Source: an uncultured archaeon
GTDB taxonomy: Archaea; Asgardarchaeota; Thorarchaeia; Thorarchaeales; Thorarchaeaceae
DNA length: 30,713 nt
NCBI GenBank assembly: GCA_964610875.1
Contig: CAZSWP010000044.1
Coordinates: forward strand, 1-30,713
Direction of reading: 5' to 3'
The notes under the pieces were generated by a model. That model saw nothing but the letters and a program-made list of their open reading frames with translations. It ran no database searches and had not been told where the DNA came from. Both the position numbers and the translations under genes were made by a program. Below, one piece after another: positions 1 to 26,651 of this stretch (positions are counted from its first letter, which is position 1; each line of letters begins with the position of its first letter).

Positions 1-110
1 GTGCAATCGATTCAGGTTGCGTGAAGGACCTTACCCTTTCCTCATGCTGTTGAGCGCCCTTTTCATTTTTCATATTTTTAGTCAGATGAGTGGAATTTAG
101 GTCTAGGATT
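1..110 (+). repeat. rRNA-tail repeat copy R1 (cut by window start)
   Basis: GTGCAATCG..GGTTGCGTGAAGGACCTTACCC..CTGTTGAGCGCC-T tract-TTAGTCAGATGAGTGGAA..TAGGTCTAG, shared with six other copies. Confidence 0.93.
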
Positions 111-808: not shown

Positions 809-832
809 TATATCCAATTCAGATCACCCGAC

Positions 833-906
833 GGACCTTACCCTTTCCTCATGCTGTTGAGCGCCCTTTCATTTTGTATTGTTTAGCTAGATTGAGTAGA
901 ATCTAG
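833..906 (+). repeat. rRNA-tail repeat copy R2 (5'-truncated)
   Basis: GGACCTTACCCTTTCCTCATGCTGTTGAGCGCCCTTT identical to R1, starting ~25 nt after doc stop. Confidence 0.92.
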
Positions 907-1817: not shown

Positions 1818-1933
1818 CTTTGAACGGGACAGTGTAATTGTTTCGATTGCGTGAAGGAGCTCATCCTTTTCTCATGCTGTTGAGCGCCCTTTCATTTTTC
1901 AGATTCACCTGATGAGTAGTAGCTAGGTTTCTA
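1818..1933 (+). repeat. rRNA-tail repeat copy R3 (diverged; may extend left to ~1790)
   Basis: GTGTAATTGTTTCGATTGCGTGAAGGAGCTCATCC..CTCATGCTGTTGAGCGCCCTTTCATTTTTC..GATGAGTAG..CTAGG. Confidence 0.88.
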
Positions 1934-2000
1934 ATCGAATCCATAGCATGTTCTAGTCACTTTCCAATGAAATTATAAGTAGTTATTAGCATTATAAGAT

Positions 2001-2524: not shown

Positions 2525-2590
2525 CTCCACGGTTGAGCGCCTTTTCATATTTTAGTCAGGTGAGTGGAACCTAGGTCTACTGCCACTGTT
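2525..2590 (+). repeat. rRNA-tail repeat copy R4 (shortest)
   Basis: CTCCACGGTTGAGCGCCTTTTCATATTTTAGTCAGGTGAGTGGAACCTAGGTCTA. Confidence 0.9.
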
Positions 2591-2650: not shown

Positions 2651-2660
2651 ATTGATTATT

Positions 2661-2903
2661 ATGGCGAAGAATGTGGCATTGGCTGATGACGTCTACAGTG
2701 ACCTCAAGCGTCTAAAGCGTAAGGATGAGAGTTTCAGCGATGTGATTCGTAGATTGCTTCGGACGAGAGGTACGATTGCAGACCTTGCAGGGTCTGAAAC
2801 GCTTAGTTTAGAAGAATGGCTGAAGATGAAGAGACTCAAAGAAGAACAGGCAGAAACCGATGAGAAACGAGCGGATGTCCTTCTCTCACAACAAGAAGGG
2901 TGA
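2661..2903 (+). CDS. vapB: VapB-family antitoxin (DUF217-like)
   Basis: KNVALADDVYSDLKRLKRKDESFSDVIRRLL. Confidence 0.88.
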   Translation: MAKNVALADDVYSDLKRLKRKDESFSDVIRRLLRTRGTIADLAGSETLSLEEWLKMKRLKEEQAETDEKRADVLLSQQEG

Positions 2904-2911
2904 ATGTACTA

Positions 2912-3316
2912 ATGCCCATTTTTGATACGAGCTTTCTCATTGATCTTACTAGAGGCGACGAGGGAGCAGTAGCCATAGCAAAACAAGTTGACAGCGGGTC
3001 TGATTTCAAAGCAGTGTCAGTCGTGACAGTCCACGAGTACCTTAGAGGTGTGTTCTATCATCATGTTGGGAAGAAGTCTTTAGACAAGAAATTACGCAAA
3101 GCACTCACTGATTTAGCACATTTTGAACAGCTTGAATTCACGTCAACCATTGCTCGGGAAGCAGCTCTATTGGATGCAAATCTTTTCCGAAAGGGAAACA
3201 TGATTCCATATGCAGATGTAATAATCGCCGCAACAGCTATTCATCACAAGTCTTCTCTTGTTACAAGAGATACGCATTTTCAGTCCATAGGTGACCTTGA
3301 CATAATTGAGTATTAG
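2912..3316 (+). CDS. vapC: VapC PIN-domain toxin
   Basis: PIFDTSFLID..HE..DVIIAATA..LVTRDTHF; GGGTGA SD before ATG 2912. Confidence 0.92.
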   Translation: MPIFDTSFLIDLTRGDEGAVAIAKQVDSGSDFKAVSVVTVHEYLRGVFYHHVGKKSLDKKLRKALTDLAHFEQLEFTSTIAREAALLDANLFRKGNMIPYADVIIAATAIHHKSSLVTRDTHFQSIGDLDIIEY

Positions 3317-3322
3317 AGTGTT

Positions 3323-3402
3323 GAAGTGTAAGAAATACTTCGTAGCGGATGCTGCGGATGGAAGAAGACGAGAGTCATTCTCGCTTCCATCAATCACCTC
3401 CT
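3323..3402 (+). pseudogene. Decayed 16S rRNA 3'-terminal fragment
   Basis: GAAGT-GTAAGAA..TTCGTAGC-GGAT-GCTGCGGA-TGGA[insert]TCACCTCCT versus universal AAGTCGTAACAAGGTA-helix 45-TGGATCACCTCCT. Confidence 0.8.
3363..3393 (+). other. Putative 31-nt bulge-helix-bulge intron in the 16S fragment
   Basis: Central helix GATG(3357-60)/CATC(3388-91), bulges GA^A and AA^T, intron stem GAAG/CTTC plus CGAGA/TCTCG; ligation gives GGATGGATCACCTCCT. Confidence 0.75.
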
Positions 3403-3540
3403 AGGATCTCTACTTTTTAGAGGTAGAGCAGCTTGGTTCTGGCAATCCTCTGGATTACTGGAAGAGGTACAGGCCTTCGATGGGATAGTGCAATCGTACA
3501 GGTTGCGTGAAGGACCTTACCCCCCTCCACTGTTGAGCGC

Positions 3541-3557
3541 CCTTTTTCATTTTTCTT
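3541..3557 (+). terminator. Archaeal U-rich terminator-like tract (equivalent tract follows GTTGAGCG in every copy)
   Basis: CCTTTTTCATTTTTCTT. Confidence 0.55.
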
Positions 3558-3610
3558 TCATCATTTATCCACTAGACATAGAAATTGTTCTTTTAAAATT
3601 CATGTACAAC

Positions 3611-4771
3611 TCAATTGACAATCAATCCTTTTGGTCTTCTGATTTTTCGAATTGCAACAACAACTGCAATGATTATGAATCCCCCTCCAATAATCGATAG
3701 AAATAGAGGGTCTGTGGCACCTTGCCATAATCGTGTTCCAATAGAATTTCCCTGTTGTGTACGTAAAATCTTACCGTGATATCCAGAAGCCCACCCATGT
3801 GTTTCGTTTATGAAATCCACAGCAAGAAGTCTTGACAAACCAATATCGACTCCCTGCGCGTACCACGTATTTCCACCATCTGATGAATACATGATTGGTG
3901 GTTCAGATCCAATAATCCATCCATGTGACTCATCATAGAATTGAATGTCTGTGAGATACGCATCCCTGAACCCTGGGATTGGTGAACCACTCGGAATCGG
4001 AATTTCTTGCCAAGTCATATCATCACTTGTTTTTGCAAGCATATCATCTGCTATCGCCCATCCATGTAGAGAATCACTGTATTCTATTGCCCATCCTCCT
4101 TTGTCAAAGTTCTTTTCCCACGAGTATCCACCATCAGTTGACTGGTATATCCCATCAAAACCAATAGCATCCATGGCCTCATTAGAATGGAAGTATATTC
4201 TTCTCAGAGTATCATCAAATATCCATCCCTTGCACTTATTCCATGTCACACCTGAGTCATTTGTATTGAAGAGTATCTTATTTGTTGCAGCCCATCCGTG
4301 TGTTCCGTTAGAAAAAGCGATTGTGGAGAATAATGATTGAATATCATCAAATTCAACAACTGTCCAAGAAGACCCATAATCTTCCGAAAAAACCAGGTTT
4401 CCAAGAGATGCAATCCAAATAATATTCCCATCAGTAATAGTAATCTGATTGAACCAGTCTTCTGAATTTTCAAGCTGAATATTCCATGTATTTCCCCTAT
4501 CTGTGGTAGCAAGTATAATTCCATTACCAACTCCCTCCGATGATTGACCAACAGTCCATCCATGACTGGCATTGATGAAATCAATATCCCAAAGTATGCC
4601 TTCTGGGTATCCTGAATCTAATGATTCCCAGATATCCTCATTGTGATTTCCATTAGGTTGTGCTCTTCCGTAAGAAAGCAATAGCAAAGAGATGATTAGT
4701 ACGAGTATGAATAGTCTAGATAATCTACCTTTGTACTTGATACTTTTCGTATCTATTGCTATACTAATCAT
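3611..4771 (-). CDS. YCF48/BNR-repeat beta-propeller, secreted and C-terminally membrane anchored
   Basis: Repeated F.D..HGW and T.DGG.TW motifs; N-terminal hydrophobic signal; C-terminal TM helix and basic tail. Confidence 0.85.
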   Translation of the reverse strand: MISIAIDTKSIKYKGRLSRLFILVLIISLLLLSYGRAQPNGNHNEDIWESLDSGYPEGILWDIDFINASHGWTVGQSSEGVGNGIILATTDRGNTWNIQLENSEDWFNQITITDGNIIWIASLGNLVFSEDYGSSWTVVEFDDIQSLFSTIAFSNGTHGWAATNKILFNTNDSGVTWNKCKGWIFDDTLRRIYFHSNEAMDAIGFDGIYQSTDGGYSWEKNFDKGGWAIEYSDSLHGWAIADDMLAKTSDDMTWQEIPIPSGSPIPGFRDAYLTDIQFYDESHGWIIGSEPPIMYSSDGGNTWYAQGVDIGLSRLLAVDFINETHGWASGYHGKILRTQQGNSIGTRLWQGATDPLFLSIIGGGFIIIAVVVAIRKIRRPKGLIVN

Positions 4772-4806
4772 CTCCTATTCTCTATTCCATACATACGATT
4801 ATTTGG

Positions 4807-5907
4807 CTATTCAGGCAGTGGTGTTCCTCCCCCGCCGCCTCCACCTCCACCAGGAAGTGTCACATAGGTATAATCGCTTCCCAGATAGTGATTCGATGAA
4901 TCATATGCTTTAACCTTGACTCTCATTTGTACATAACCCGTAAGTAACGACCATGAAACATAGTAATCTCCACTTGTATATGGTGTGTAGTCAATTCCCA
5001 CATACATATCACTAGTCCAATATCCCGAACTAGTCTTGTATTTGACATAGACCTTGACATAATCCATAGCAGTATAGTGATTTACACGTACATAACCTGT
5101 GACACCATTTGACTCCCATGCATTATAGATGAGATTGGATGCAGGTATCGGGTCATTGCTATCCAGAGGATCATATCCCCAAGCTATTTCATTTCCATCA
5201 CTTATGATATCTTGGTCTGTACTCCATAGTAGCGGATTTGTTCCATATGCAAACTCGTCCGAGTCGGAAATAGCATCATCGTCGGTATCACTATCCAATG
5301 GATCAGTTCCGTGGATTAAGACTTCATTGGCATCTGATAAATCATCATTATCTGTATCCCAATCATTTGGATTTGTACCATATACGTATATCTCCAAATC
5401 ATCTGAGAGTCCTTCTCCATCTGTATCCGGTCCGCTTGTTAGCCAATCTGAAATATCATCATATGTTTCTTCGTTTTCAGGGTCATTTATCAGTAGTCCA
5501 TGTGATACATCATAGAATTGACGATTGGTTTCCGCATATGATAGATATGCTCTGGACTCACCTACGATAGGGTCACTGTATTCACCATGAATACTTAGCA
5601 ATAGGAGTCCCCATGCTGGGTCTATTCCCGCACCTGTATACCACCTAATTCCATCAGAATAAGAACTCGGATCATCATTTAAATTGTCAATGAGTTGAGA
5701 GTGAGGTGCAAGTGACCAAAAAACTGGACTTGGCCAAAGATTTCCATTATCCCCAATATAACCTCCAATTAATGACATTATAAGTGACCAAGAGTTTAAT
5801 GGATCAGCTAAGCATGTACCATCATTTGGAGTTCCCATTGTTATTACAGTACCAATGTCAATACGTGAAGACTCTAGTTGCGTGCTATGATCCATCAACA
5901 TTTGACG
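4807..5907 (-). pseudogene. C-terminal half of split alpha/beta-hydrolase with DxDxD Ca-binding repeats
   Basis: RQML..IGTVITMGTPNDGT, D.IV and H motifs, DTDxDxLSD..E...GT.P repeats; 5' end abuts the mobile element and joins in frame to 23804-24631. Confidence 0.88.
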
Positions 5908-6097
5908 GGTCGCGAACAGATACTAATAATCAGGACAAACCTTGACATTGTTGTGTAGGTGCTTATATAGGACCGGTAAGGATATTTTAGTGAGGGTGTC
6001 TTGACACACGATCTTACCCTCGCAAAGCCAGTCCCAGTACCGTTGTCTGGGAGGACAAAGCTTTGGTGTCCAGATCTGTCCAACTTACAATGAACGG
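5908..6097 (+). mobile_element. 190-bp non-autonomous IS607-like element, copy A
   Basis: Identical to the reverse complement of 24630-24819 except 2 nt; GG at both junctions; no terminal IR; right end TGTCCAGATC-TGTCCAACTT..GAACGG; left end has 10-bp spaced GACA motifs. Confidence 0.85.
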
Positions 6098-6150
6098 TTA
6101 GAACTGGTTTCATAAGATAATAACCAATCTATTAACGTCAAGACATTTAC

Positions 6151-6645
6151 TCAATTTTGAAATCTTCTGTCAGAAACAAATGACCTACTTTCGTCATTCA
6201 TAGATGATATCAACCAACCGGAGGTTGCACCCAATCGATTGTCAAATTCAGGAACAAATGGTTTTATGTCAAGTAACGGAGTTCTATCAAGCATATCAGC
6301 ACCGTTGAATAGTATGATATTCCCAGTCATATTTACAAGCTGTACAATTGATATACCAATAGGATTTGGTCGAGAAGGGATTCTCGTTGAGAACAGACCA
6401 TGCTTCTGTTTGTCAAGATATGGAACTATCTGCATCTCAGCGGGTTTTGCCCTATCAAACCAGTAGAGAAGAATGATGTGTGAGAATAGATCCAAGGATT
6501 TCAAACCTGGCACGAATTCTTCTCGTATTATAATCTCACCTTGAAACTCAGATTTTGAAGATTGAATTGGAATACCATCGCTTGAAGTGAATGGAGTCCT
6601 TATGATACCTATTGGTTTAACACCGAGTTCCATGATTTGCACCAC
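6151..6645 (-). CDS. tsaA: tRNA m6t6A37 methyltransferase TsaA/TrmO
   Basis: PIGIIRTPF, FSHIILLYWF, GLFSTR.PSRPNPIG, TPLLDIKPF. Confidence 0.92.
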   Translation of the reverse strand: MVQIMELGVKPIGIIRTPFTSSDGIPIQSSKSEFQGEIIIREEFVPGLKSLDLFSHIILLYWFDRAKPAEMQIVPYLDKQKHGLFSTRIPSRPNPIGISIVQLVNMTGNIILFNGADMLDRTPLLDIKPFVPEFDNRLGATSGWLISSMNDESRSFVSDRRFQN

Positions 6646-6673
6646 AATTACTTTCGTGTGTTTCGTATAAGCA

Positions 6674-7147
6674 CTATGTTGGATTTAGCGTTGAGAGGAG
6701 ATCCCTAGCAAATTGACGCGCGTTCTCTAGGTCTTCAGATGACGGATGCCCTTTGCTTCTTCCGCCGCCAATCTTGAAGAGTCCATAAGTATTCCAGCCG
6801 CGACAAGAGAATGAAGCCGAGATACTTGCATTCTTCTTTAACAACTCGTCGACCAATGATTTTTCGAATTCCTTAAGGACTGGAAATTTTGTGAAGCCAC
6901 TAGTATAATAGACAAAAACATGTTTTCCTGAGAATGAATCTATTCTCCGAACAAATTCAAAGATACTTCTATGATGCTTTCCAAAGTAGATACCAGAACC
7001 AATGCCGATGACGTCATATTGTTTTATGGTTTCTACATCCACTTCTTCTGGAGGGAGGATTTCTGCATCCATTTCCTCAGCCATGACTTCTGAAATTTTC
7101 AAAGTATTACTATGATGTATTGATTTACAGACAAGTAGTGAGTTCAT
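6674..7147 (-). CDS. Flavodoxin-family protein
   Basis: SIHHSNT.KI, YDVIGIGSGIYFG, GHPSSEDL..A..FA; start placed at ATG 7147. Confidence 0.85.
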   Translation of the reverse strand: MNSLLVCKSIHHSNTLKISEVMAEEMDAEILPPEEVDVETIKQYDVIGIGSGIYFGKHHRSIFEFVRRIDSFSGKHVFVYYTSGFTKFPVLKEFEKSLVDELLKKNASISASFSCRGWNTYGLFKIGGGRSKGHPSSEDLENARQFARDLLSTLNPT

Positions 7148-7240
7148 TGCATATTTTGTCGTTATACAACCTACCATAAGTCTGTCTGATTGCACTAAAA
7201 TCTCTGATTGCATCCACCAGTTTTTGAAACCCAATTAGTC

Positions 7241-8212
7241 CTAATTTGACGGAGGACCAGGTGTGATTTCCAGTTCCCTTACAAATTCTTTGTAACGATT
7301 ACGAACCGTCACTTCTGTTACGCCTGCAGCTGCTGCAATCTCTCTTTGTGTGGCACGATTCTCAGTTAGAATGGATGCAATATAGATGGCAGCGGCTGCA
7401 AGACCTCGCGGATCTCTTCCGGTCAACAGACGCCCATGTTCTTTAGCATCCTGAAGAATATTAAGAACCACATTCTGCATGTTACCACTCACTGATAATT
7501 GGGAGAGGATTTTTGGTACATAGCTCTTAGGATCAGGAATAGGCATTTTCAACTTCATTTTGCGAGCTAGAAGACGATAGTGTCGTCCAATCTTTTTCTT
7601 ACTAATTCTCGAATAATGTGCAATTTCCTCTAATGAACGAGGAATCTGTCGTAATCTGCATGCCGCATAAATTGCAGCTGCCACCATTGCCTCAATCGAC
7701 CTACTACGAATAAGCCGTTTGAGTATGGCTTTTCGATACAACATTGCTGCGAGTTCTTTTACACTCTTCTTCAACTCCATCTGAGACGCTAATCTATCCA
7801 TCTCAGATAATGCTTGAGCCAAGTTCCTTTCAGCAGAACTGTGTATACGGGTTCGTATCTGCCATTTTCTCAAACGATGAATCTCAGCACGTCGCTTCCC
7901 AGAGAGTTTTCTTCCTGATGAATCCCGATCACGCCAGTCTATACGTGTCGAGAGACCCTTGTCATGAATTGTATATCTTGTTGGTGCACCAGTTCTTGCT
8001 CGTGACCGCTTTTCTTCAGCAGTAAAGGCTCTCCATTCGGGACCCATATCGATACTGCGTTCGCTAACAACTAATCCACAGCTGGCACAAACCAGTTCAC
8101 CTGTTCTGGGTTTTCGTATAGCTTTTGTTCCAGAGCATTCGGAACATCTAAACTCTTCACTCTCTCTAGTACTTCTTTTTCGCTCTTTGGGATGGGTTGG
8201 TCCAGACTTCAT
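7241..8212 (-). CDS. tfb: Transcription initiation factor IIB (start uncertain, ORF open to 8281)
   Basis: Zn ribbon CSEC..GELVCASCG, GPEWRAF, two cyclin folds, GVTEVTVRNRYKE. Confidence 0.95.
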   Translation of the reverse strand: MKSGPTHPKERKRSTRESEEFRCSECSGTKAIRKPRTGELVCASCGLVVSERSIDMGPEWRAFTAEEKRSRARTGAPTRYTIHDKGLSTRIDWRDRDSSGRKLSGKRRAEIHRLRKWQIRTRIHSSAERNLAQALSEMDRLASQMELKKSVKELAAMLYRKAILKRLIRSRSIEAMVAAAIYAACRLRQIPRSLEEIAHYSRISKKKIGRHYRLLARKMKLKMPIPDPKSYVPKILSQLSVSGNMQNVVLNILQDAKEHGRLLTGRDPRGLAAAAIYIASILTENRATQREIAAAAGVTEVTVRNRYKEFVRELEITPGPPSN

Positions 8213-8378
8213 TACATAAATCCTGCATTCTTGGACTGCTTCTGATGGATTATTCGAAATCACCAATACTGGTATCATCAATCTCTTGAGGTCAGTAAGG
8301 TCTCTTACTATAGTCCAATTATCATTTAACGCGAGGGCATATTAAACCCACGACACATGCCAATATGGTGTTGTTCAG

Positions 8379-16060: not shown

Positions 16061-19000
16061 TTAACCTGATTGTCGTTTTCTCAATAGCATCACTGCCATA
16101 ACTAAAACAATGATGCCGCCTCCTGCACCTGCAACAATAATTATTGTACCCAGACCATCATCAGTTGGAATATCAGATGTTGTGGTGGTTTCAGTTGTGT
16201 CATCTGTTGTTTCAGTCGTGGTGTCAGTTGTTGTATCAGTTGTAGTGGTTGTGCTTGTAGTTGTGGTGTCAGATGATGTGACAGTAACTATGACTGAGTC
16301 GCTTGAAAATAGTCCACACTCTGAATAAACAATAAGAGTGAAGTTGTATATACCAACATCAAGACCATCAAGCGATACTACAATGTTTGAACCGTCCCAT
16401 TCACCTGAGGCAGATACACTTCCATTGAGCAATATCTCATAGGAGTCCGGATATGAATCAGAAACTATCCAAGTGATTGATTCTCCTTCGGAACCTTCCG
16501 TAAAGGATACATCATCTGGATGGTTGATCTCAGGTGTACTCAGAGCCATTACCGTGAGGAATACTGTATCAGAGGAGCAATTATTACTATCAGAGAATAC
16601 AACAAGGGTCAGATTATATACACCCACTGCAAAGTCATCCACATCTATTTCAATGTCAGTGCCATCCCATTCTCCAGAGTTTTCCAGTGTTCCATTGACA
16701 TAGAACTCAAAACTATTGGGATATTGAGAAGATACGTCCCAAGACACCAGGTTACCATTAGACCCATACCAATACCAGAAATCTTCAGGTTGGTCAATCT
16801 CAGGAATGGTTCCGGTTTTCACCGTAAGGAGGACTGTATCATATGTCTGGTTGTTGCTTTGAGAATACACAAAAAGTGTTAGATAATGGAGACCGACTGA
16901 GAGACCGTCTACATCTATCTCGATATCAGTCCCATCCCATGGACCTGAGGCCTCTATTGTTCCGTTGATATAGAACTCGAAACTATCAGGGTATGTGCAA
17001 GAAGCATTCCAGACTACGGAGTGTCCATCGGTGCTATACCAATACCAGAAATCTTCAGGTTGGTCAATCTCAGGAATGCTTCTGGCTCTCACTGTCATGA
17101 AAACGGTATCTGATGCGTTATTACCACATCTAGAATACACAATAATGGTCACATTGTAGACCCCAACATCGTAACCATCCATAATTCCTTCAACACTGCT
17201 TCCGTCCCAACCATATGGACCATAGTAAGTATCATTGAGATAGACTTCCATAAAATCGGGGTCCGAAGATGCAGCATCCCACATGATAGTATTGCCTTTA
17301 TCACCATACCAGTACCAGAAATCAGCAGGATGGTCTATTGTAGGAGTCGTGATTTCAATGACTTCAATTACAACAGCGTCATGATTTGATGATGCGAAAT
17401 ATGATGTCAAGTATATTGTATAACAATAATAACCAGGAGAAAGACCATTCAGATTCACTACTACGGGACCACCGGTCCATAAACCTCCAAATTGAAACGA
17501 TTCATTCATGTAAACCTGATAGGACCGGATGTAGCTTGAAGGACTTGTCCAAGTTATAGAATTGCCAACACTTCCTTCATTAAATGTTTGATTGGCAGGA
17601 TTACTGATGACAATAGTGTAACCCGGGAGACTATTTGGAAAACCATCAATAGATCCACCTGTGCCAGGAACTTCGTATATTCCGCCACCATAGTAGTCAG
17701 ACCAAGTGTTCCCATACATGACATCATCATCCCAAAAGTTGCCAGCAGAATCATCCTGAGCGTTATTGTCGGAATTCCCACCAAACTCGTTGAGATAGAA
17801 TAAATTGTTTGTACTTGATTGGACCAGAACACCAAGTGAGTTATTGAAGAAACCACTGTTGGTAACATTACAGTTGTTTGCTCTATACAAGTTCAAACCA
17901 TGATCACAATCAATGACAAGAGTGTCATTAATGGCAACACCATCTGACCCGTAGAGATACAGACCTGTTTTAGTACTATTGATAACATTCAAACCCTCAA
18001 TCTGGAGATCATGCGAGTTCTCTGCGTATATGCTATACTTTGAACAATTCCATACTTCTGAATTAAGGATCACTGAATCTTCAGATTGATACAGATAGAG
18101 ACCATAGTATTCGGAGAAGGATGAATTCACATTGGATAACGATGCATTGTGTGATTGAGTCAAATATAATCCAGCACGTGCACTCTCCGTGACTGTGAAG
18201 TTTTCAATGGAGCAATGAGTGCTGTTGTAACTTCTCAACCCATCGTACACATCACTCAGAGAATAGTTTGCCACTGTTACATTGTAGCAAGATGCAAGGT
18301 ATAACGGAATTGAAACCTGTGCCATCTCATGTCCCTTAATTGTACTATTCTCACAGTATAGAAGGAAAATTTGCCCATAGTCCGAAGCATCAATCTGAAG
18401 TTCATGTTGATTCTTGAAGTATCCTATGGGTAACCCACCAACCGTATTGCCAGTCATTGTATGGTTATAATAAGCGATATTGTCATTGTTGATGATAATA
18501 ATACCCGTACTGCTGAATGTGTTGGAGTAAATCTCCAAATCCCGAGAAGAGAACAACCGTATACACGCAGAGTTACCTTGGACCATATTAGCTTCAAGAA
18601 TGCCACTACTGATACTGGACAATGAGATTCCTACATCACTAGCAACAATTTCATTATCTATTATACTGAAATTCTGACATCTGTATAGTTGAATCGCATC
18701 TTCAATATCATCGACCAATATGTTATCTTCAAGACGGATATTATCAGACCAAGAAGCGTAAATCGCATTGTCAGACATTTTTGACATAGTGTTGTTTGTT
18801 ACGATACAGTCGTATGAATCTTGGATCGATATCCCATCATGTGTGATGTTCAAGGCCTCGTTTTTGTTAATGATAGAATTATCAGAATATTGCAAATGGA
18901 ATCCTGTACCATACCCTTCAGCATAGCAATCGGTGATATTCATTGATGTCGAATGGTCACCAGAGACTGCTACTCCATTATAGCTCTCATAATAGAATTG

Positions 19001-21106
19001 ACTACTTATCACATTACAATCTTCGGAATAGAAGAAGAGTAAACCTTTGCGGCACCCATCAATCAGTAAAGAAGAGACAGAGCAGTTGCTTGAGAAAGCC
19101 ATTACGTAGCCCACAATTGATTTTGTTAAACTACCACCAGTAGTCGATACATTCTCAGAGTCTACGATAAATACCTGTCCAGCAGAGGTCAAATCATAGT
19201 TAACATCGGATTCATTCACTAGATAGTAAATCGACTTGCCTAATACTGTATTATCCAGTGTAATCTCGTGAAACCAATATTCACGTAACTCCCCTTCAAC
19301 ATAAAGGCCGCCAGAATCCAGTGTGTTGTTATCCAGATAGCAGGCAGTGGATTGGTCCAAGTAGATTGCGGCATCATCCATATTCGTTATCTGATTATCT
19401 TTGATTGTTACGTCACTGCTATCTTCAACATAGATTCCTTCATAGTTAGTTTCGGGGCTATAGTTGTCATCTATCGTGTTCCGAATAAGTGTGACATTCG
19501 TGCTTGATTCCACGTAGATAGCATGACCACGATTGAACTGAAAAGATGAGTCTGAAACGGTGACATTGGTGACATCCACCATTCCGATTGACCCGGACCT
19601 ATAGAGTTCAAGATTATCGAATTCAAAGAAATTGCAGGAGCTTAGTGCAATACCTCCAGCATCTGAAATACCAGATAGTTTCACAAGTCCGTAATAACAT
19701 TCCCTGAAATAGAATTCTCGGCCCGAATTGCCTTCAGCAATAGTCCACCAAATTTGAGTGTGATTTGAGTAGTTGATCTCGTATCCTTCATATCCAAAGG
19801 TCTGTGCGTTGTCATATGCTCTACATTCCCAAATGAAAGTATCATTATCAAAACTGAATGCGAAGCCAGAGTGTTCATTGAATTCAGAAAAGCAAAACCT
19901 TACCTGGGATTCATAGCATTCATGTATGTAGAAGCCATCGCCCTCATTCGCGGATGAGTTGCAGTAGTCCAATTCTGTGCGATTGCTTTGCCAGACGCTA
20001 TATCCATCGTCCCAATTATCATAAGCAATGCAATTATTGAACTTCGTATCGAGTGTACCACGGTCATAGTATCCGTAGTTGTTGTAGAACGCAATATTAT
20101 CACGCACAATGGTATTGTTGGAATAGAGAATACCAATTCCTGCGATATCATTATTGTTAGAAACAGTATTATTCTGAACAGTACAATCTAGTGAGTCCTC
20201 TATTAGGATTCCATAATCGTTGTTTGTTTTACCTAACGAGCTATATACAGTATTGTTCCTAAGAATCACCTCTGCGGATTCCGAAACTGTGATTCCGTTT
20301 ATCAATTGGTTTGCAACACTATTATGACTGATATTACATTGACTACAGCTTAGAATCTGAATACAGTCTTTACCATCATTCCCATCAAATGTATTATACT
20401 CAGCAACCACGTCTATGGATGTGTATAGATACAACATACTCCTGAACAGAATATTATCTATGGCATTTGTTTCATTTGAATTGATGATCTGGATACGTGA
20501 CCATGTTACATTGTTACCTATGATATGCGAATAATTACACCCCGTTAATTTGATATCAGGAATACCAGTCCAATAAGAACCCTGGACTGTGTTTCCGGTA
20601 AGGTTAGCATATGGACAGTTAGTCAGATAGATAGAAGAGGCTCTAATATCGTAAGAATAGGCATCAATAATTGTAAGATTTGAAGAACCAGTCGCTTCAA
20701 CTATTTTTGAAACGTTATAGAAGATGCATCCTTCGATGGTGACATGAGATGCATTATCGAGAACTATCGCATCAGCTCCAAAAGGTTCACCTGTTACAGT
20801 TCTAAAGAAACAGTCCCTTATTACACAATATGCATCAGTATCTGTTATGTTGATGAGTGCGTCAGCACCAGTTATGTTCCGACCCTCGAAGGTATACGGC
20901 TGTTCAGCAGTGCCTAATCCACTGAAGTTCGTGACAAAGTCATCATTACCAACAACTGTGAATGTTGGATGCTCCACATAGGAAATGAGTTTCTCATCTA
21001 CAGGTGCAGTATCCAATTCTACCTGAGAGAAATCAGATAGAACGGGTATCACCAAAAGAAATAGAATAGAGAGTATAATTAAGGGTCTTTTCATAGCAAA
21101 TCCCAA
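16061..21106 (-). CDS. 1681-aa cell-surface protein: parallel beta-helix (NosD-like) repeats, ~5 Ig-like 90-aa repeats, Thr-rich linker, C-terminal TM anchor
   Basis: Signal peptide; many GI.L..S.N..I..N repeats; PEIDQPEDFWYWY..W repeats with 270-bp period; poly-Thr; TM helix plus RKR. Confidence 0.9.
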   Translation of the reverse strand: MGFAMKRPLIILSILFLLVIPVLSDFSQVELDTAPVDEKLISYVEHPTFTVVGNDDFVTNFSGLGTAEQPYTFEGRNITGADALINITDTDAYCVIRDCFFRTVTGEPFGADAIVLDNASHVTIEGCIFYNVSKIVEATGSSNLTIIDAYSYDIRASSIYLTNCPYANLTGNTVQGSYWTGIPDIKLTGCNYSHIIGNNVTWSRIQIINSNETNAIDNILFRSMLYLYTSIDVVAEYNTFDGNDGKDCIQILSCSQCNISHNSVANQLINGITVSESAEVILRNNTVYSSLGKTNNDYGILIEDSLDCTVQNNTVSNNNDIAGIGILYSNNTIVRDNIAFYNNYGYYDRGTLDTKFNNCIAYDNWDDGYSVWQSNRTELDYCNSSANEGDGFYIHECYESQVRFCFSEFNEHSGFAFSFDNDTFIWECRAYDNAQTFGYEGYEINYSNHTQIWWTIAEGNSGREFYFRECYYGLVKLSGISDAGGIALSSCNFFEFDNLELYRSGSIGMVDVTNVTVSDSSFQFNRGHAIYVESSTNVTLIRNTIDDNYSPETNYEGIYVEDSSDVTIKDNQITNMDDAAIYLDQSTACYLDNNTLDSGGLYVEGELREYWFHEITLDNTVLGKSIYYLVNESDVNYDLTSAGQVFIVDSENVSTTGGSLTKSIVGYVMAFSSNCSVSSLLIDGCRKGLLFFYSEDCNVISSQFYYESYNGVAVSGDHSTSMNITDCYAEGYGTGFHLQYSDNSIINKNEALNITHDGISIQDSYDCIVTNNTMSKMSDNAIYASWSDNIRLEDNILVDDIEDAIQLYRCQNFSIIDNEIVASDVGISLSSISSGILEANMVQGNSACIRLFSSRDLEIYSNTFSSTGIIIINNDNIAYYNHTMTGNTVGGLPIGYFKNQHELQIDASDYGQIFLLYCENSTIKGHEMAQVSIPLYLASCYNVTVANYSLSDVYDGLRSYNSTHCSIENFTVTESARAGLYLTQSHNASLSNVNSSFSEYYGLYLYQSEDSVILNSEVWNCSKYSIYAENSHDLQIEGLNVINSTKTGLYLYGSDGVAINDTLVIDCDHGLNLYRANNCNVTNSGFFNNSLGVLVQSSTNNLFYLNEFGGNSDNNAQDDSAGNFWDDDVMYGNTWSDYYGGGIYEVPGTGGSIDGFPNSLPGYTIVISNPANQTFNEGSVGNSITWTSPSSYIRSYQVYMNESFQFGGLWTGGPVVVNLNGLSPGYYCYTIYLTSYFASSNHDAVVIEVIEITTPTIDHPADFWYWYGDKGNTIMWDAASSDPDFMEVYLNDTYYGPYGWDGSSVEGIMDGYDVGVYNVTIIVYSRCGNNASDTVFMTVRARSIPEIDQPEDFWYWYSTDGHSVVWNASCTYPDSFEFYINGTIEASGPWDGTDIEIDVDGLSVGLHYLTLFVYSQSNNQTYDTVLLTVKTGTIPEIDQPEDFWYWYGSNGNLVSWDVSSQYPNSFEFYVNGTLENSGEWDGTDIEIDVDDFAVGVYNLTLVVFSDSNNCSSDTVFLTVMALSTPEINHPDDVSFTEGSEGESITWIVSDSYPDSYEILLNGSVSASGEWDGSNIVVSLDGLDVGIYNFTLIVYSECGLFSSDSVIVTVTSSDTTTTSTTTTTDTTTDTTTETTDDTTETTTTSDIPTDDGLGTIIIVAGAGGGIIVLVMAVMLLRKRQSG

Positions 21107-21673
21107 TCCGGCGTCTATCTACAAAAAGAGAGATTTTATTGCTTTCTACTGTAGTGGCGCTGATCAAACGTTAGGAAGGGAAAAACATCATCATTATTTA
21201 AATTATTTTATTAAAAATCCGAATTATGATAGTCTTATTTGAATTATTATCAGTTGATAGCATAGAATTCTGGAATGCCTTTTTGGTTCCAAAAACTCTC
21301 AGAGCTTACGTATCAGTGCAACCCAGCTATTTTATTGTTGTGTCTAGAAGAAATTTTGGGAGTTTTCAAAGAACGCTTAGATTCGTTTGTCACTAAATAC
21401 TTTGGAACAGACGAGAAGACATCATCGAGAGTAGCCGATTTTGATTCACTCTTGCAATAACTCCAAATTGTTCTCAAGAGAATCAGAATACAATGGTAGC
21501 ATACCTAGAATCCTCTCAACTAAATTAAATAATGAAAGAACGCTCAACAGTGGAAGGGGTAAGGTCCTTCACGCAACCTGTACGATTGCACTATCCTATC
21601 AAAGCCGGTACCCCTTTCACAGTCCCAAAGGACTGCGAAACAAGCTGCTTCTACCTCTAGAGATAGAAATCTT

Positions 21674-21756
21674 AGGAGGTGATTGATGGAAGATGAGAAT
21701 GACTCTCGACCTCTTCCATCCACATCTTCCGCTACGGATACCTCATCAGTCAACTT
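21674..21756 (-). pseudogene. Decayed 16S rRNA 3'-terminal fragment
   Basis: AAGTTG..TGATGAGGTATCCGTAGC-GGAA-GATGTGGATGGA[insert]TCACCTCCT. Confidence 0.82.
21683..21714 (-). other. Putative 32-nt bulge-helix-bulge intron in the 16S fragment
   Basis: GTG-GATG-GA^A-GAGG..CTTC-CATC-AA^T-CAC: outer stem GTG/CAC, 4-bp helix, two 3-nt bulges. Confidence 0.75.
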
Positions 21757-21834
21757 GATACTCAGTCCATGACTTTATATTGCCTGAATTAGTACTATAT
21801 GTCAGAGTCTAAACTGAAAATCAGGTGATGGTCA

Positions 21835-22531: not shown

Positions 22532-22714
22532 ACTTCATCAAACGTCAAATATCTCAACGAGTTTCACCAGAGGACATCATTCATTGTGCCAATCTTATAA
22601 GAAGCTCAGTATCCTCGGTGAGGACCTTATCGATTGCGATTTCAAAATCCACTCCCCGATATCTCAAACCAGATAAACGGAGAATCGTATCTTCAAGATT
22701 TCCAGCAGGAAACC
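22532..22714 (-). pseudogene. Relic of the antitoxin-doc operon (homologous to ~268-450)
   Basis: Reverse complement aligns at roughly 85-90% by eye; covers the antitoxin 3' part, spacer and first ~9 doc codons. Confidence 0.9.
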
Positions 22715-22749: not shown

Positions 22750-23205
22750 TTAACCAATTTGAAAAGATCCAAAGAAGCACTCAAGAAATTCAATTCTATC
22801 CAAGAGCTGTTTTTTCCTAATAGCATCAACTATTTCCTTTTCCCTACGAGCAAAGATGGCTTTTCCTTTGAATATTCGCGCAGCAACAATCGAAAAACAA
22901 TCAGACAAAGCAATAGGGACATCGCATTTGATTTTAGAAGCTTCCATCCATAGTGCTTTAGAAGGAACTATTGCAACTGCGGAAGAATGAATCAGGTTCT
23001 GTGTCTTTTCCCAAGCTTGCTTCCAAGTTGAATTTCGACAGAGAATGTAGTTTAATTCACACAGGGCAATTTCAGTACATGCATAATGACCATGCCTTTT
23101 GATAATACCTCTAGATAGTTCTGCAGCTGAGGCTTCATTAAGTGCCAATCCGATTAGTACCCCTGCGTCTAACACAAAGAGAGGATTATTCTTTTCTTTC
23201 ATCAA
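22750..23205 (-). CDS. vapC: PIN-domain toxin
   Basis: FVLDAGVLI..ALCELNYILCR..IALSDCF. Confidence 0.85.
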   Translation of the reverse strand: MMKEKNNPLFVLDAGVLIGLALNEASAAELSRGIIKRHGHYACTEIALCELNYILCRNSTWKQAWEKTQNLIHSSAVAIVPSKALWMEASKIKCDVPIALSDCFSIVAARIFKGKAIFARREKEIVDAIRKKQLLDRIEFLECFFGSFQIG

Positions 23206-23495: not shown

Positions 23496-23527
23496 CTAAT
23501 ATGGTTTTAGCTGTTCATTTCTTGAAG

Positions 23528-23615
23528 AAAAATCCTATACTCGGATTCCACTCATCTGACTAAGAATATGAAAAGGCGCTCAACAGTGGAGGGAGGGTAA
23601 GGTCCTTCACGCAAC
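23528..23615 (-). repeat. rRNA-tail repeat copy R7 (5'-truncated)
   Basis: Reverse complement GTTGCGTGAAGGACCTTACCCTCCCTCCACTGTTGAGCGCCTTTTCATATTCTTAGTCAGATGAGTGGAA. Confidence 0.92.
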
Positions 23616-23803
23616 TTCAAGCAGTCATATGAACTAAACCTAAGAACAATTACTTCTCAAGTGATTCAAATTAATAGAATGTCTGGTACTCAACTAGAGG
23701 AGAGGGATTAATCAATCAGAAACAACTTGCTTAAATAGAAAGGGGATGATATAGGAATAATCTGAACTAATGTTCGGATAAATCGTGATTAGGAGAGCAA
23801 GAA

Positions 23804-24631: not shown

Positions 24632-24819
24632 GTTCATTGTAAGTTGGACAGATCTGGACACCAAAGCTTTGTCCTCCCAGAGGACGGTACTGGGACTGGC
24701 TTTGCGAGGGTAAGATCGTGTGTCAAGACACCCTCACTAAAATATCCTTACCGGTCCTATATAAGCACCTACACAACAATGTCAAGGTTTGTCCTGATTA
24801 TTAGTATCTGTTCGCGACC
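24630..24819 (-). mobile_element. 190-bp IS607-like element, copy B (inverted relative to A)
   Basis: CC-GTTCATTGTAAG..CTGTTCGCGA-CC. Confidence 0.85.
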
Positions 24820-24851
24820 CTTTTATATACATAAACCTCCCATAATTGCAA

Positions 24852-25706: not shown

Positions 25707-26651
25707 TTACGGCATCAAAGAGATATTCAGACCCTTGACCATGTCTTTGTAGCGATTTCGTACGGTCACTTCTGTAACGTTTGCAGCATCTGCAATTTCT
25801 CGTTGGGTTCTTCTATCATCTTCAATAATACCAGCTATATAGATTGCCGCAGCTGCTATACCACTGGGATCTTTTCCTGCAGTCAAACCTTTACCTCTAG
25901 CTTCAGTAATAATCTCTGCAGCTCGGGTCACAGTTCTTCCAGACAACTTAAGATCGGATGAAATCCTGGGAAGGAATCCTTTCGCTGAAGGCAGTGGAAC
26001 ATGAATATTGAGATGCTGTTGAATCATTCTAACACATTTACCAATCTGCCGTCTGTCTATCTTGGCTTCCTTTGCCACCTCATCAAGCTGTCGAGGTCGT
26101 TTATGTATTCGACAGGACAGATAGAGTGATGCTGACACCATTCCATCAATACTTCTACCACGTACAAGACGCTTATCCAAAACTTTTCTGTACACCAAAG
26201 CACCTGTTTCCACGGTTTCTCGTGATATGCCTAATTGTGAAGCTAGTCGTTCAATCTCGTTCATAGCAATCTGAAGATTTCTCTGCTTGGAACCATGAGC
26301 CCAACTTCTTCTCTGCCATTTTCTCATTCGATAGAGCTGCGCTCTTCGCGATCCACCAATTGACCTTCCGGATGCATCTCTATTTGCTCTGCTTATTCGT
26401 GTGGCTAGACCCTTGTCAGCAATAGTGTATCTTGTAGGAGCTCCTGTTCGCTCTCGGTTGTTCCGTTCTTCAGCAGTAAAAGCCCTCCATTCAGGCCCGC
26501 TGTCAATGATTCCACTTGACATCACAAAGCCACATGAAGTGCATACGCGTTCTCCACGTGACCTATCCCAATGTAGTTCTTTGGAACCGCACACTGTGCA
26601 ACTAAGTGTTTCTTCTTTCTCGCGACCGGCTTTTCTGGTAGTCTCTGTCAT
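25707..26651 (-). CDS. tfb: Transcription initiation factor IIB, second paralogue
   Basis: CTVC..GERVCTSCG, GPEWRAF, GKDP, VTEVTVRNRYK. Confidence 0.95.
   Translation of the reverse strand: MTETTRKAGREKEETLSCTVCGSKELHWDRSRGERVCTSCGFVMSSGIIDSGPEWRAFTAEERNNRERTGAPTRYTIADKGLATRISRANRDASGRSIGGSRRAQLYRMRKWQRRSWAHGSKQRNLQIAMNEIERLASQLGISRETVETGALVYRKVLDKRLVRGRSIDGMVSASLYLSCRIHKRPRQLDEVAKEAKIDRRQIGKCVRMIQQHLNIHVPLPSAKGFLPRISSDLKLSGRTVTRAAEIITEARGKGLTAGKDPSGIAAAAIYIAGIIEDDRRTQREIADAANVTEVTVRNRYKDMVKGLNISLMP

Follow-up and report, generated by a model that had tools for sequence, protein, structure and literature searches.

Layout of the locus and identity of the long copies

The window, i.e., the whole 30,713-nt stretch of DNA that was analyzed, is the entire contig C44 of a 95%-complete metagenome-assembled genome of the Thorarchaeaceae. 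It carries seven copies of one repeat (R1 to R7), of which R5 and R6 are long forms. R1–R4 separate cassettes encoding VapB-type antitoxin/Doc, VapBC and DUF7557/ParE, and a convergent BNR-repeat gene lies downstream of the R5 trailer copy. An AbrB/MazE-type antitoxin (PF04014) gene and a 155-aa partner ORF with no Pfam match are located upstream of R6, and R7 heads a second, inverted array. No tRNA genes were found in the window. The features are as follows:

1-105 (+): R1, short form, a trailer copy truncated at its 5' end and complete at its 3' end
817-905 (+): R2, short form, truncated at 5' and complete at 3'
1826-1935 (+): R3, short form, truncated at 5' and complete at 3'
2525-2580 (+): R4, short form, truncated at 5' and complete at 3'
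2652-3316 (+): second VapBC cassette, between R4 and R5
2900-3316 (+): vapC (PIN) gene, stop codon at 3314..3316
3323..3336 (+): R5, heavily mutated remnant of the h44/h45 linker (E. coli ~1491-1505, GAAGT-GTAAGAAAT), forming the 5' edge of R5
3337..3362 (+): R5, remnant of helix 45 (5' arm 3337-3346, loop GGAT 3347-3350, 3' arm 3351-3360, then GA)
3363..3393 (+): R5, copy of a predicted 31-nt bulge-helix-bulge (BHB) mini-intron, after E. coli A1531 (helix GATG/CATC, bulges GAA and AAT, inner hairpin)
3394..3402 (+): R5, intact anti-Shine-Dalgarno end TCACCTCCT (E. coli 1532-1540)
3403..3560 (+): R5, trailer copy with blocks GCAGCTTG, GGTACAGGCC, CTTACCC and CACTGTTGAGCGCCC, then a T tract
21767-21500 (-): R6, long form overall
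21674..21767 (-): R6, 16S part
21767-21744 (-): R6, possible remnant of a 1499/1500 mini-intron
21740-21715 (-): R6, helix 45
21714-21683 (-): R6, copy of a predicted 32-nt BHB mini-intron
21682-21674 (-): R6, TCACCTCCT
21500..21673 (-): R6, trailer copy with an extension beyond the T tract
23525..23620 (-): R7, short form

Several further similarities were observed in the window. A truncated second copy of the antitoxin region of the first cassette, at 22532-22714 (-) and similar to 265-450, sits between a PIN gene (22750-23205) and the convergent AbrB/MazE-type antitoxin operon; thus, cassettes have been overwritten inside genes too. Two paralogous TFB (TFIIB) genes, at 7241-8281 (-) and 25707-26651 (-), lie 18.4 kb apart and are flanked by other short similar stretches. 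The last 55-57 nt of the contig (30657-30713) recur in identical form at 5905-5961 and, inverted, at ~24766-24820. They belong to a ~190-bp mini-element that is present on several contigs, including C2, C23 and C34, which explains why C44 ends there. The inverted copies of the mini-element fit an 18.5-kb inversion proposed in the first-pass annotation of this DNA.

That annotation had read the long form of the repeat as starting with a decayed 16S rRNA 3' terminus, comprising the 1492 primer region, helix 45 and the anti-Shine-Dalgarno. The organism's own 16S gene is represented by its first 507 nt only, found by BLAST at the end of contig C25, and its 3' end is not assembled; therefore, real full-length 16S genes of the same family were used for comparison. 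An nhmmer profile built from the 3' ends of nine such genes matched the 16S part of R5 at 3339-3402 (+) with an E value of 9e-18 and that of R6 at 21767-21674 (-) with 3e-23, bearing out the proposed identity, and gave no other significant match in the window. When the trailer was added to the profile, the values became 1.5e-41 for R5 and 1.4e-48 for R6, and the homology to real genes runs on through the whole ~150-nt trailer. Rfam, searched with gathering and E-value thresholds, yielded no relevant match in the window, including the archaeal SSU model RF01959, as expected for only ~45 nt split by an insert. RF01959 also had no match in the organism's own genome, despite the 507-nt 16S piece later found by BLAST.

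Real 16S genes of the relatives end in GGTATCCGTAGCGGAAGCTGCGGATGGA...TCACCTCCT, which is exactly the lineage-specific sequence of R5 and R6. The lineage-specific helix 45 of the real genes, TATCCGTAGC GGAA GCTGCGGATG, is recognizable in both copies together with their anti-Shine-Dalgarno end. The homology of R5 starts at about E. coli position 1491 (possibly 1483) and that of R6 at about 1503, perhaps preceded by the remnant of another mini-intron. A third long copy was identified in the same genome on contig C63 (C63:12646-12838). The GGAA loop of helix 45 is the site of two dimethyl-adenosines. In R5 the loop is GGAT and the 5' arm has decayed, in R6 the 3' arm carries two changes, and the C63 copy has about 10 changes; the altered positions of R5 and R6 are invariant in all real genes seen. 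A 16S body is absent beside all three copies. The earlier statement that these are not functional rRNA genes therefore holds, and the long forms are cut-off, drifting copies of the family's 16S 3' end plus trailer.

It is hardly credible that these copies are an assembly artefact in which real 16S reads, own or foreign, were misjoined to the cassette contig. The organism is present at only ~5x depth, the contig ends inside repeats, and the real 16S of an abundant Thorarchaeon resembling the relative G001 aligns to 3341-3403 at 90% or more in the same runs, all of which would favor a misjoin. However, R5, R6 and the C63 copy differ from one another and from every real gene at invariant positions, independent Logan contigs from two runs span their junctions at the depth of the organism itself, and the same architecture is found in many independently assembled genomes, including the single-contig genome G044. 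The contig of the abundant Thorarchaeon, with 110-156x depth in runs X1 and X2 (the same microbial-mat samples), contains both of the mini-introns described below.

Predicted mini-introns, trailer pairing and drift of the copies

The first-pass annotation had counted the 31-nt insert in the copies as a sign of decay. This does not stand, since real full-length 16S genes have the same piece in the same position. An insert of 31-33 nt between GGATGGA and the anti-Shine-Dalgarno end was found in G001, G002, G016, G022, G052 and several other metagenome-assembled genomes, and real 16S genes of G003, G013, G012, G055, G067 and G095, as well as G044, are devoid of it. The insert forms a canonical BHB structure, with a 4-bp helix GAUG/CAUC, 3-nt bulges GA^A and AA^U and an inner hairpin that co-varies among real genes. 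The pattern GATG (GA^A), inner hairpin, CATC (AA^T) and CACCT is present in all six insert-bearing genes of the nine-gene sample. R5, R6 and the C63 copy share it, the latter with a compensatory GATA/TATC central helix. Predicted excision within the bulges restores GGAUGGA-UCACCUCCU (GGATGGA joined to TCACCTCCT in the DNA), as in the real genes that have no insert. Based on this fold, the 31-nt insert is a predicted BHB-type mini-intron and a lineage feature of real genes rather than decay. This 1531 insert is present in every long orphan copy, even where the resident real gene is devoid of it, as in G044, G055, G067 and G095.

About half of the real genes contain a second 30-nt insert of the same kind, between GUCGUA and ACAAGG (E. 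coli 1499/1500). Further 30-nt hairpin mini-introns were observed in 16S genes of relatives between CCTGGA and ATCCCTAGTA (~E. coli 1340), between CCCTA and GTA, and between ACGTCCCTGC and TTCTTGC (~1385); the real 16S genes behind these extra sites are L035, L194, L197, L041, L040, L034, L038, L036 and L162. Several real 16S genes show point recoding at the same mini-intron sites, and in G019 the loop of helix 45 is enlarged by an insert of ~100 nt with three hairpins.

The 16S trailer is the 3' strand of the processing stem formed by leader and trailer of pre-16S rRNA. The pairing, e.g., of leader GCTCAACAGTG with trailer CACTGTTGAGC, extends over the whole length of the trailer with -118 kcal/mol, which explains the trailer's conserved blocks. 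The motif (A/T)TGAGTGGA(C/T)..TCTA, located ~20 nt beyond the T tract, is conserved downstream of real 16S genes and in most copies (76-105, 2550-2579 and 23537-23566 (-) in the window), and the similarity between copies stops ~10 nt beyond it.

R5 and the C63 copy are parts of one segmental duplicate that includes vapC, whose stop codon is separated from the 16S-derived stretch by 6 nt at R5, with the same junction in the C63 paralogue. We therefore used vapC as an internal yardstick. Within this pair, vapC is 97-98% identical at codon positions 1 and 2 and 84% identical at position 3. The stretch before helix 45 is 74% identical, helix 45 70%, the insert 87% and the anti-Shine-Dalgarno identical at all nine positions (9/9). 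Since helix 45 is less conserved than the third codon positions of vapC, the rRNA-derived helix appears not to be under constraint, and the copies drift near the neutral rate. The speculation in the first-pass annotation that the unit may act as a decoy for ribosome-directed toxins thus remains unsupported, as helix 45 changes at least as fast as the synonymous sites of the neighboring vapC.

In a broader form, the ~240-nt unit would be transcribed and selected as an RNA, either as such a decoy or as a processing or terminator module of the cassette mRNAs, in which the splicing endonuclease would cut the BHB site and the trailer would pair with the 16S leader. We consider this improbable. The BHB layout is retained in most orphans, including the compensatory change of the C63 copy, the insert (87%) and the anti-Shine-Dalgarno (9/9) are well preserved in the R5/C63 pair, trailer copies could pair with the 16S leader, and some orphans occupy the same chromosomal place in several genera, beside DUF1801 and LplA genes. 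Against this, a decoy would depend on helix 45, which has diverged more than synonymous sites and whose universally conserved loop carries a mutation in R5. Insert and anti-Shine-Dalgarno together are not significantly better preserved than expected (36/40 observed vs 34 expected in the R5/C63 pair), and covariation among copies can be inherited from different real source genes.

Cassette arrays, the break zone and the TnpB element

BLAST revealed matches to the 16S-end/trailer repeat in 61 of the 86 genomes searched, many of them with several orphan copies. The array begins directly behind the real 16S gene in G067, G055, G052 and L082, and a real 16S end with downstream copies in the same orientation was found in G002, G003, G052, G055, G067, G044 and G095. 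The cassettes are mostly toxin-antitoxin pairs, together with HNH, AlkZ, GNAT and other genes; in G002 (L035, contig G002:C2), the island that separates the real 16S gene from a trailer copy contains an ArsR-MerA-MerB mercury-resistance operon (4358-7154). With the HNH cassette of G067 as a query, no homologue was found in the window's genome. In G055, the gene that faces the real 16S trailer in convergent orientation is 43% identical (3e-94) to the BNR gene at R5, a likeness that would fit R5 as the displaced end of an original gene; a common BNR neighbor was not found in the comparison with G067.

Terminal 55-mers of contigs (1-55, 2621-2675 and 2895-2949 in the window) join C111 (reverse complement), the twice-used segment 2621-2949, C63 (reverse complement) and C44 into one array of ~20 kb, and the ends of C78 and C111 have one trailer 55-mer in common. 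From the relatives and these contig overlaps, we infer that the array is linked to the organism's own 16S gene. A joint of position 101 to 2609, considered as an excision, proved to be the C111 path in DNA contigs of two studies.

The starting points of the long copies fall in one zone. About 33 long orphans from 17 Thorarchaeota genomes all start at E. coli ~1483-1512 (profile positions 80-123) and none further upstream, with at least 10 different upstream junctions within these ~30 nt. Consistently, orphan BLAST matches in the 61 genomes begin at query position 109 or later, and those of long forms at 109-126. Short forms start at profile positions 138-295, and nearly all copies end at 330-332. 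The preferred breakpoint that the first-pass annotation had suggested from R5 and R6 is therefore strongly supported by breakpoints collected from homologous arrays. Within this genome the evidence is weaker, with two independent junctions only, as R5 and the C63 copy inherited theirs from a common ancestor. The break zone coincides with the site of the second BHB mini-intron (1499/1500).

Direct repeats of an RNA gene's 3' end around an island are a hallmark of islands at tRNA and tmRNA genes. Classical integrative elements could produce the arrays if a tyrosine integrase recognized the hairpin of helix 45 as a core site, in the way that others use tRNA anticodon or T loops, so that R5 and R6 would represent attR. 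Helix 45 forms a 10-bp inverted repeat, the 5' arm of which is the starting point of many long forms. However, a crossover in helix 45 predicts the reverse of what the copies show, namely variable 5' ends and a fixed 3' end. Pfam scans of the cassettes revealed no integrase; the genome has one PF00589 gene, on C52 and far from any copy, and the SSV-type integrase (PF16795) was not found. Among five relatives, PF00589 is absent from the array and 16S contigs (four have none; G002 has two, on C34 and C52). We therefore regard this explanation as very improbable. LAGLIDADG matches in the relatives were not located in arrays; they lie inside ORFs of more than 700 aa and are intein-like.

On C78, the window's genome encodes a TnpB with a TNB domain (C78:1602-3290) beside a divergent gene for a 1,614-aa protein. 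The 3' end of the latter gene directly adjoins a trailer copy. Its giant product shares 37% identity with the one encoded convergently to the real 16S trailer in G003; it has no Pfam match, and a protein-atlas look-up gave weak AAA/restriction-like leads. A large beta-helix protein of the window (16061-21106), examined as a possible relative, is unrelated. In G002, G003, G068, G093, G077, G050 and G095, the TnpB and giant-protein pair is found downstream of the real 16S gene, at a distance of ~6-13 kb that is mostly ~7 kb. The conserved region downstream of tnpB ends in the motif GGTCGGAC; in relatives the motif is repeated, with a distinct short segment after each occurrence. Segments from the relatives' elements match 16S over 14-17 nt at four sites:

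CTTGTTACGACT(TC): complement of 16S 1491-1506, six genomes
GTCCCTGCTTCTTGC: 16S ~1377-1393, the window's genome and five others
GGGGATCACCTCCT, running into the trailer: 16S 1529-1540, six genomes
TAGGGATTCCRGGTT: complement of 16S ~1332-1348, several genomes

The 1491-1506 segment spans both the zone in which long forms begin and the 1499/1500 mini-intron site, and the 1529-1540 segment spans the site of the 31-nt insert. Real 16S genes have 30-nt mini-introns or point changes exactly in the four matched sites, and in G002, G077 and G094 every site matched by an own segment is interrupted. The sequence CGGAT can be read 5' of two of the proposed targets. Judging from these matches, the segments may serve as guides of TnpB, and the break zone was probably set by this element, a candidate RNA-guided nuclease. 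Another 16S-like stretch, at C3:16082 within a TnpB ORF, was dismissed as a chance similarity.

Our favored interpretation, which we hold with some confidence, is that R5, R6 and C63:12646-12838 are the severed 3' ends of former 16S alleles, left behind by insertions at the end of the 16S gene. Accessory-cassette DNA, mostly toxin-antitoxin pairs, would have inserted so as to separate the 16S body from the terminal ~45 nt. This DNA would have brought along a replacement 3' end and trailer, the latter needed because the trailer pairs with the leader for processing, and the old end would have been pushed downstream, where it drifts. The break itself could have been made by the RNA-guided nuclease of the 16S-adjacent element encoding TnpB and the ~1,600-aa protein, with mini-introns in the target sites protecting resident 16S genes. 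In an allele with the 1531 intron and without the 1499 intron, one cut would yield exactly a long form with insert. Later 5' truncations would produce the short forms, and recombination among copies would shuffle the cassettes.

Homologous recombination among copies probably acts as well, and it could be the whole story. Circular DNA carrying a piece of 16S end and trailer would then integrate by a single crossover (Campbell type) with no nuclease, copies would spread by excision and re-integration between repeats, and the 5' edge would be inherited from a few founding events. Integrase or any other recombinase was not found in the arrays. Every cassette remains associated with one particular copy downstream of it, recognizable by its 5' edge, and has differing neighbors in G055, JAFGAR and G077, as expected from crossovers inside the shared 3' part. 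Arrays are also present in G055, G067 and G052, genomes with no match to the TnpB 3' region, and some orphans are closest to the resident real trailer (98% in G052, 91% in CAYPUO), the long copy of G052 being recent. In a tree of long units, which is poorly resolved, resident-like and foreign-like orphans are mixed and no donor was inferred. Nevertheless, common descent alone is insufficient to place so many different junctions in one ~30-nt zone of a 1.5-kb gene, and the coincidence of break zone and insert site with guide-like segments and mini-intron sites would not be accounted for. Recombination with no nuclease is therefore an unlikely account of the whole, albeit the most serious of the alternatives.

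Some observations bear on the nuclease itself. Of the four segments, the own element on C78 shows only that for 1377-1393 and thus not the one for 1491-1506. G003 and G022 carry the 1491-1506 segment and their own 16S genes have no 1499 intron; G068 and G012 have one uninterrupted site each. The 5' edges of the long forms are spread over ~30 nt and do not fall at one base. It is possible, and we propose it tentatively, that the TnpB element, located behind the single 16S gene, spreads 30-nt BHB mini-introns into its own four target sites as immunity, breaks rival 16S alleles devoid of them and captures foreign genes behind the rRNA gene by one-sided repair. If so, this would be gene capture without an integrase and also an origin for rRNA mini-introns, and severed tails such as R5 and R6 would be dated scars.

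Comparison with known systems

The literature that we searched yielded no description of integration at the 16S 3' end or of Thorarchaeota rRNA introns, nor of 16S-aimed guides, mini-introns at their targets or arrays of severed tails. The observations have practical consequences as well: small inserts in the 1492R and anti-Shine-Dalgarno regions of Thorarchaeota 16S lead to primer bias, assemblies of this group break at the 16S end, and an orphan tail may be taken for an rRNA gene.

Chromosomal integrons and integrase-less attC clusters have been reported in Archaea, including two Thorarchaeaceae genomes with two attC sites each (PMC9668308). The arrays described here likewise consist of co-oriented cassettes of ~1 kb, rich in toxin-antitoxin genes, with a repeat after each. 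In contrast to integrons, the repeat is an rRNA trailer, with neither an attC with paired R''/R' cores nor IntI. We considered GTTGAGC as an attC core (RYYYAAC ... GTTRRRY); it is the 3' strand of the leader-trailer stem, an inverse core was not seen upstream by eye, and GTTGAGC was not found in the supplement of PMC9668308.

The att sites in tRNA and tmRNA genes offer a second parallel, in that a partial copy of the RNA gene's 3' end marks the far border, the gene is restored and islands are stacked in one orientation. Here, however, the target is the 16S gene with its processing trailer, the duplicated block is ~290 nt, no integrase was found, and the copies are ragged at 5' but all run to one fixed point at 3'.

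Loci with aCas1-associated TnpB in Asgard archaea (Cas1H-Asgard-1/-2) have been catalogued (PMC10691335, citing Makarova et al. 2020). These loci likewise combine a TNB-domain TnpB with a giant divergent gene in Thorarchaeota, and a conserved region downstream of tnpB carries a GTTCACTCA-like motif. A search of PMC10691335 by term revealed no mention of 16S targeting, 16S adjacency, target-site mini-introns or trailer-copy arrays.

If the link to TnpB is true, the most conserved gene of the cell would be a battleground in these Asgard archaea: 16S would be the target of a selfish RNA-guided nuclease, the home of protective mini-introns and a landing pad for accessory genes. The severed tails would then constitute a fossil record of successive cuts, in which the introns of a tail tell which guide reached the allele.

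A functional parallel to such a link is collaborative homing, known from phage systems, in which an ORF-less intron interrupts the target of a free-standing homing endonuclease and renders the host allele immune. The mini-introns of the Thorarchaeota are likewise positioned exactly in the putative nuclease target and would protect the host allele. A related case is HeimM2 of Heimdallarchaeum, which lies behind the only 16S gene, between it and tRNA-Arg, and carries a homologue of an rRNA homing endonuclease (PMC8813620). Unlike both of these systems, the candidate nuclease described here would be directed by RNA and, through several guide-like segments, aimed at several sites of 16S. The introns are predicted 30-nt BHB introns rather than group I introns, and the by-product would be an array of severed 16S ends.
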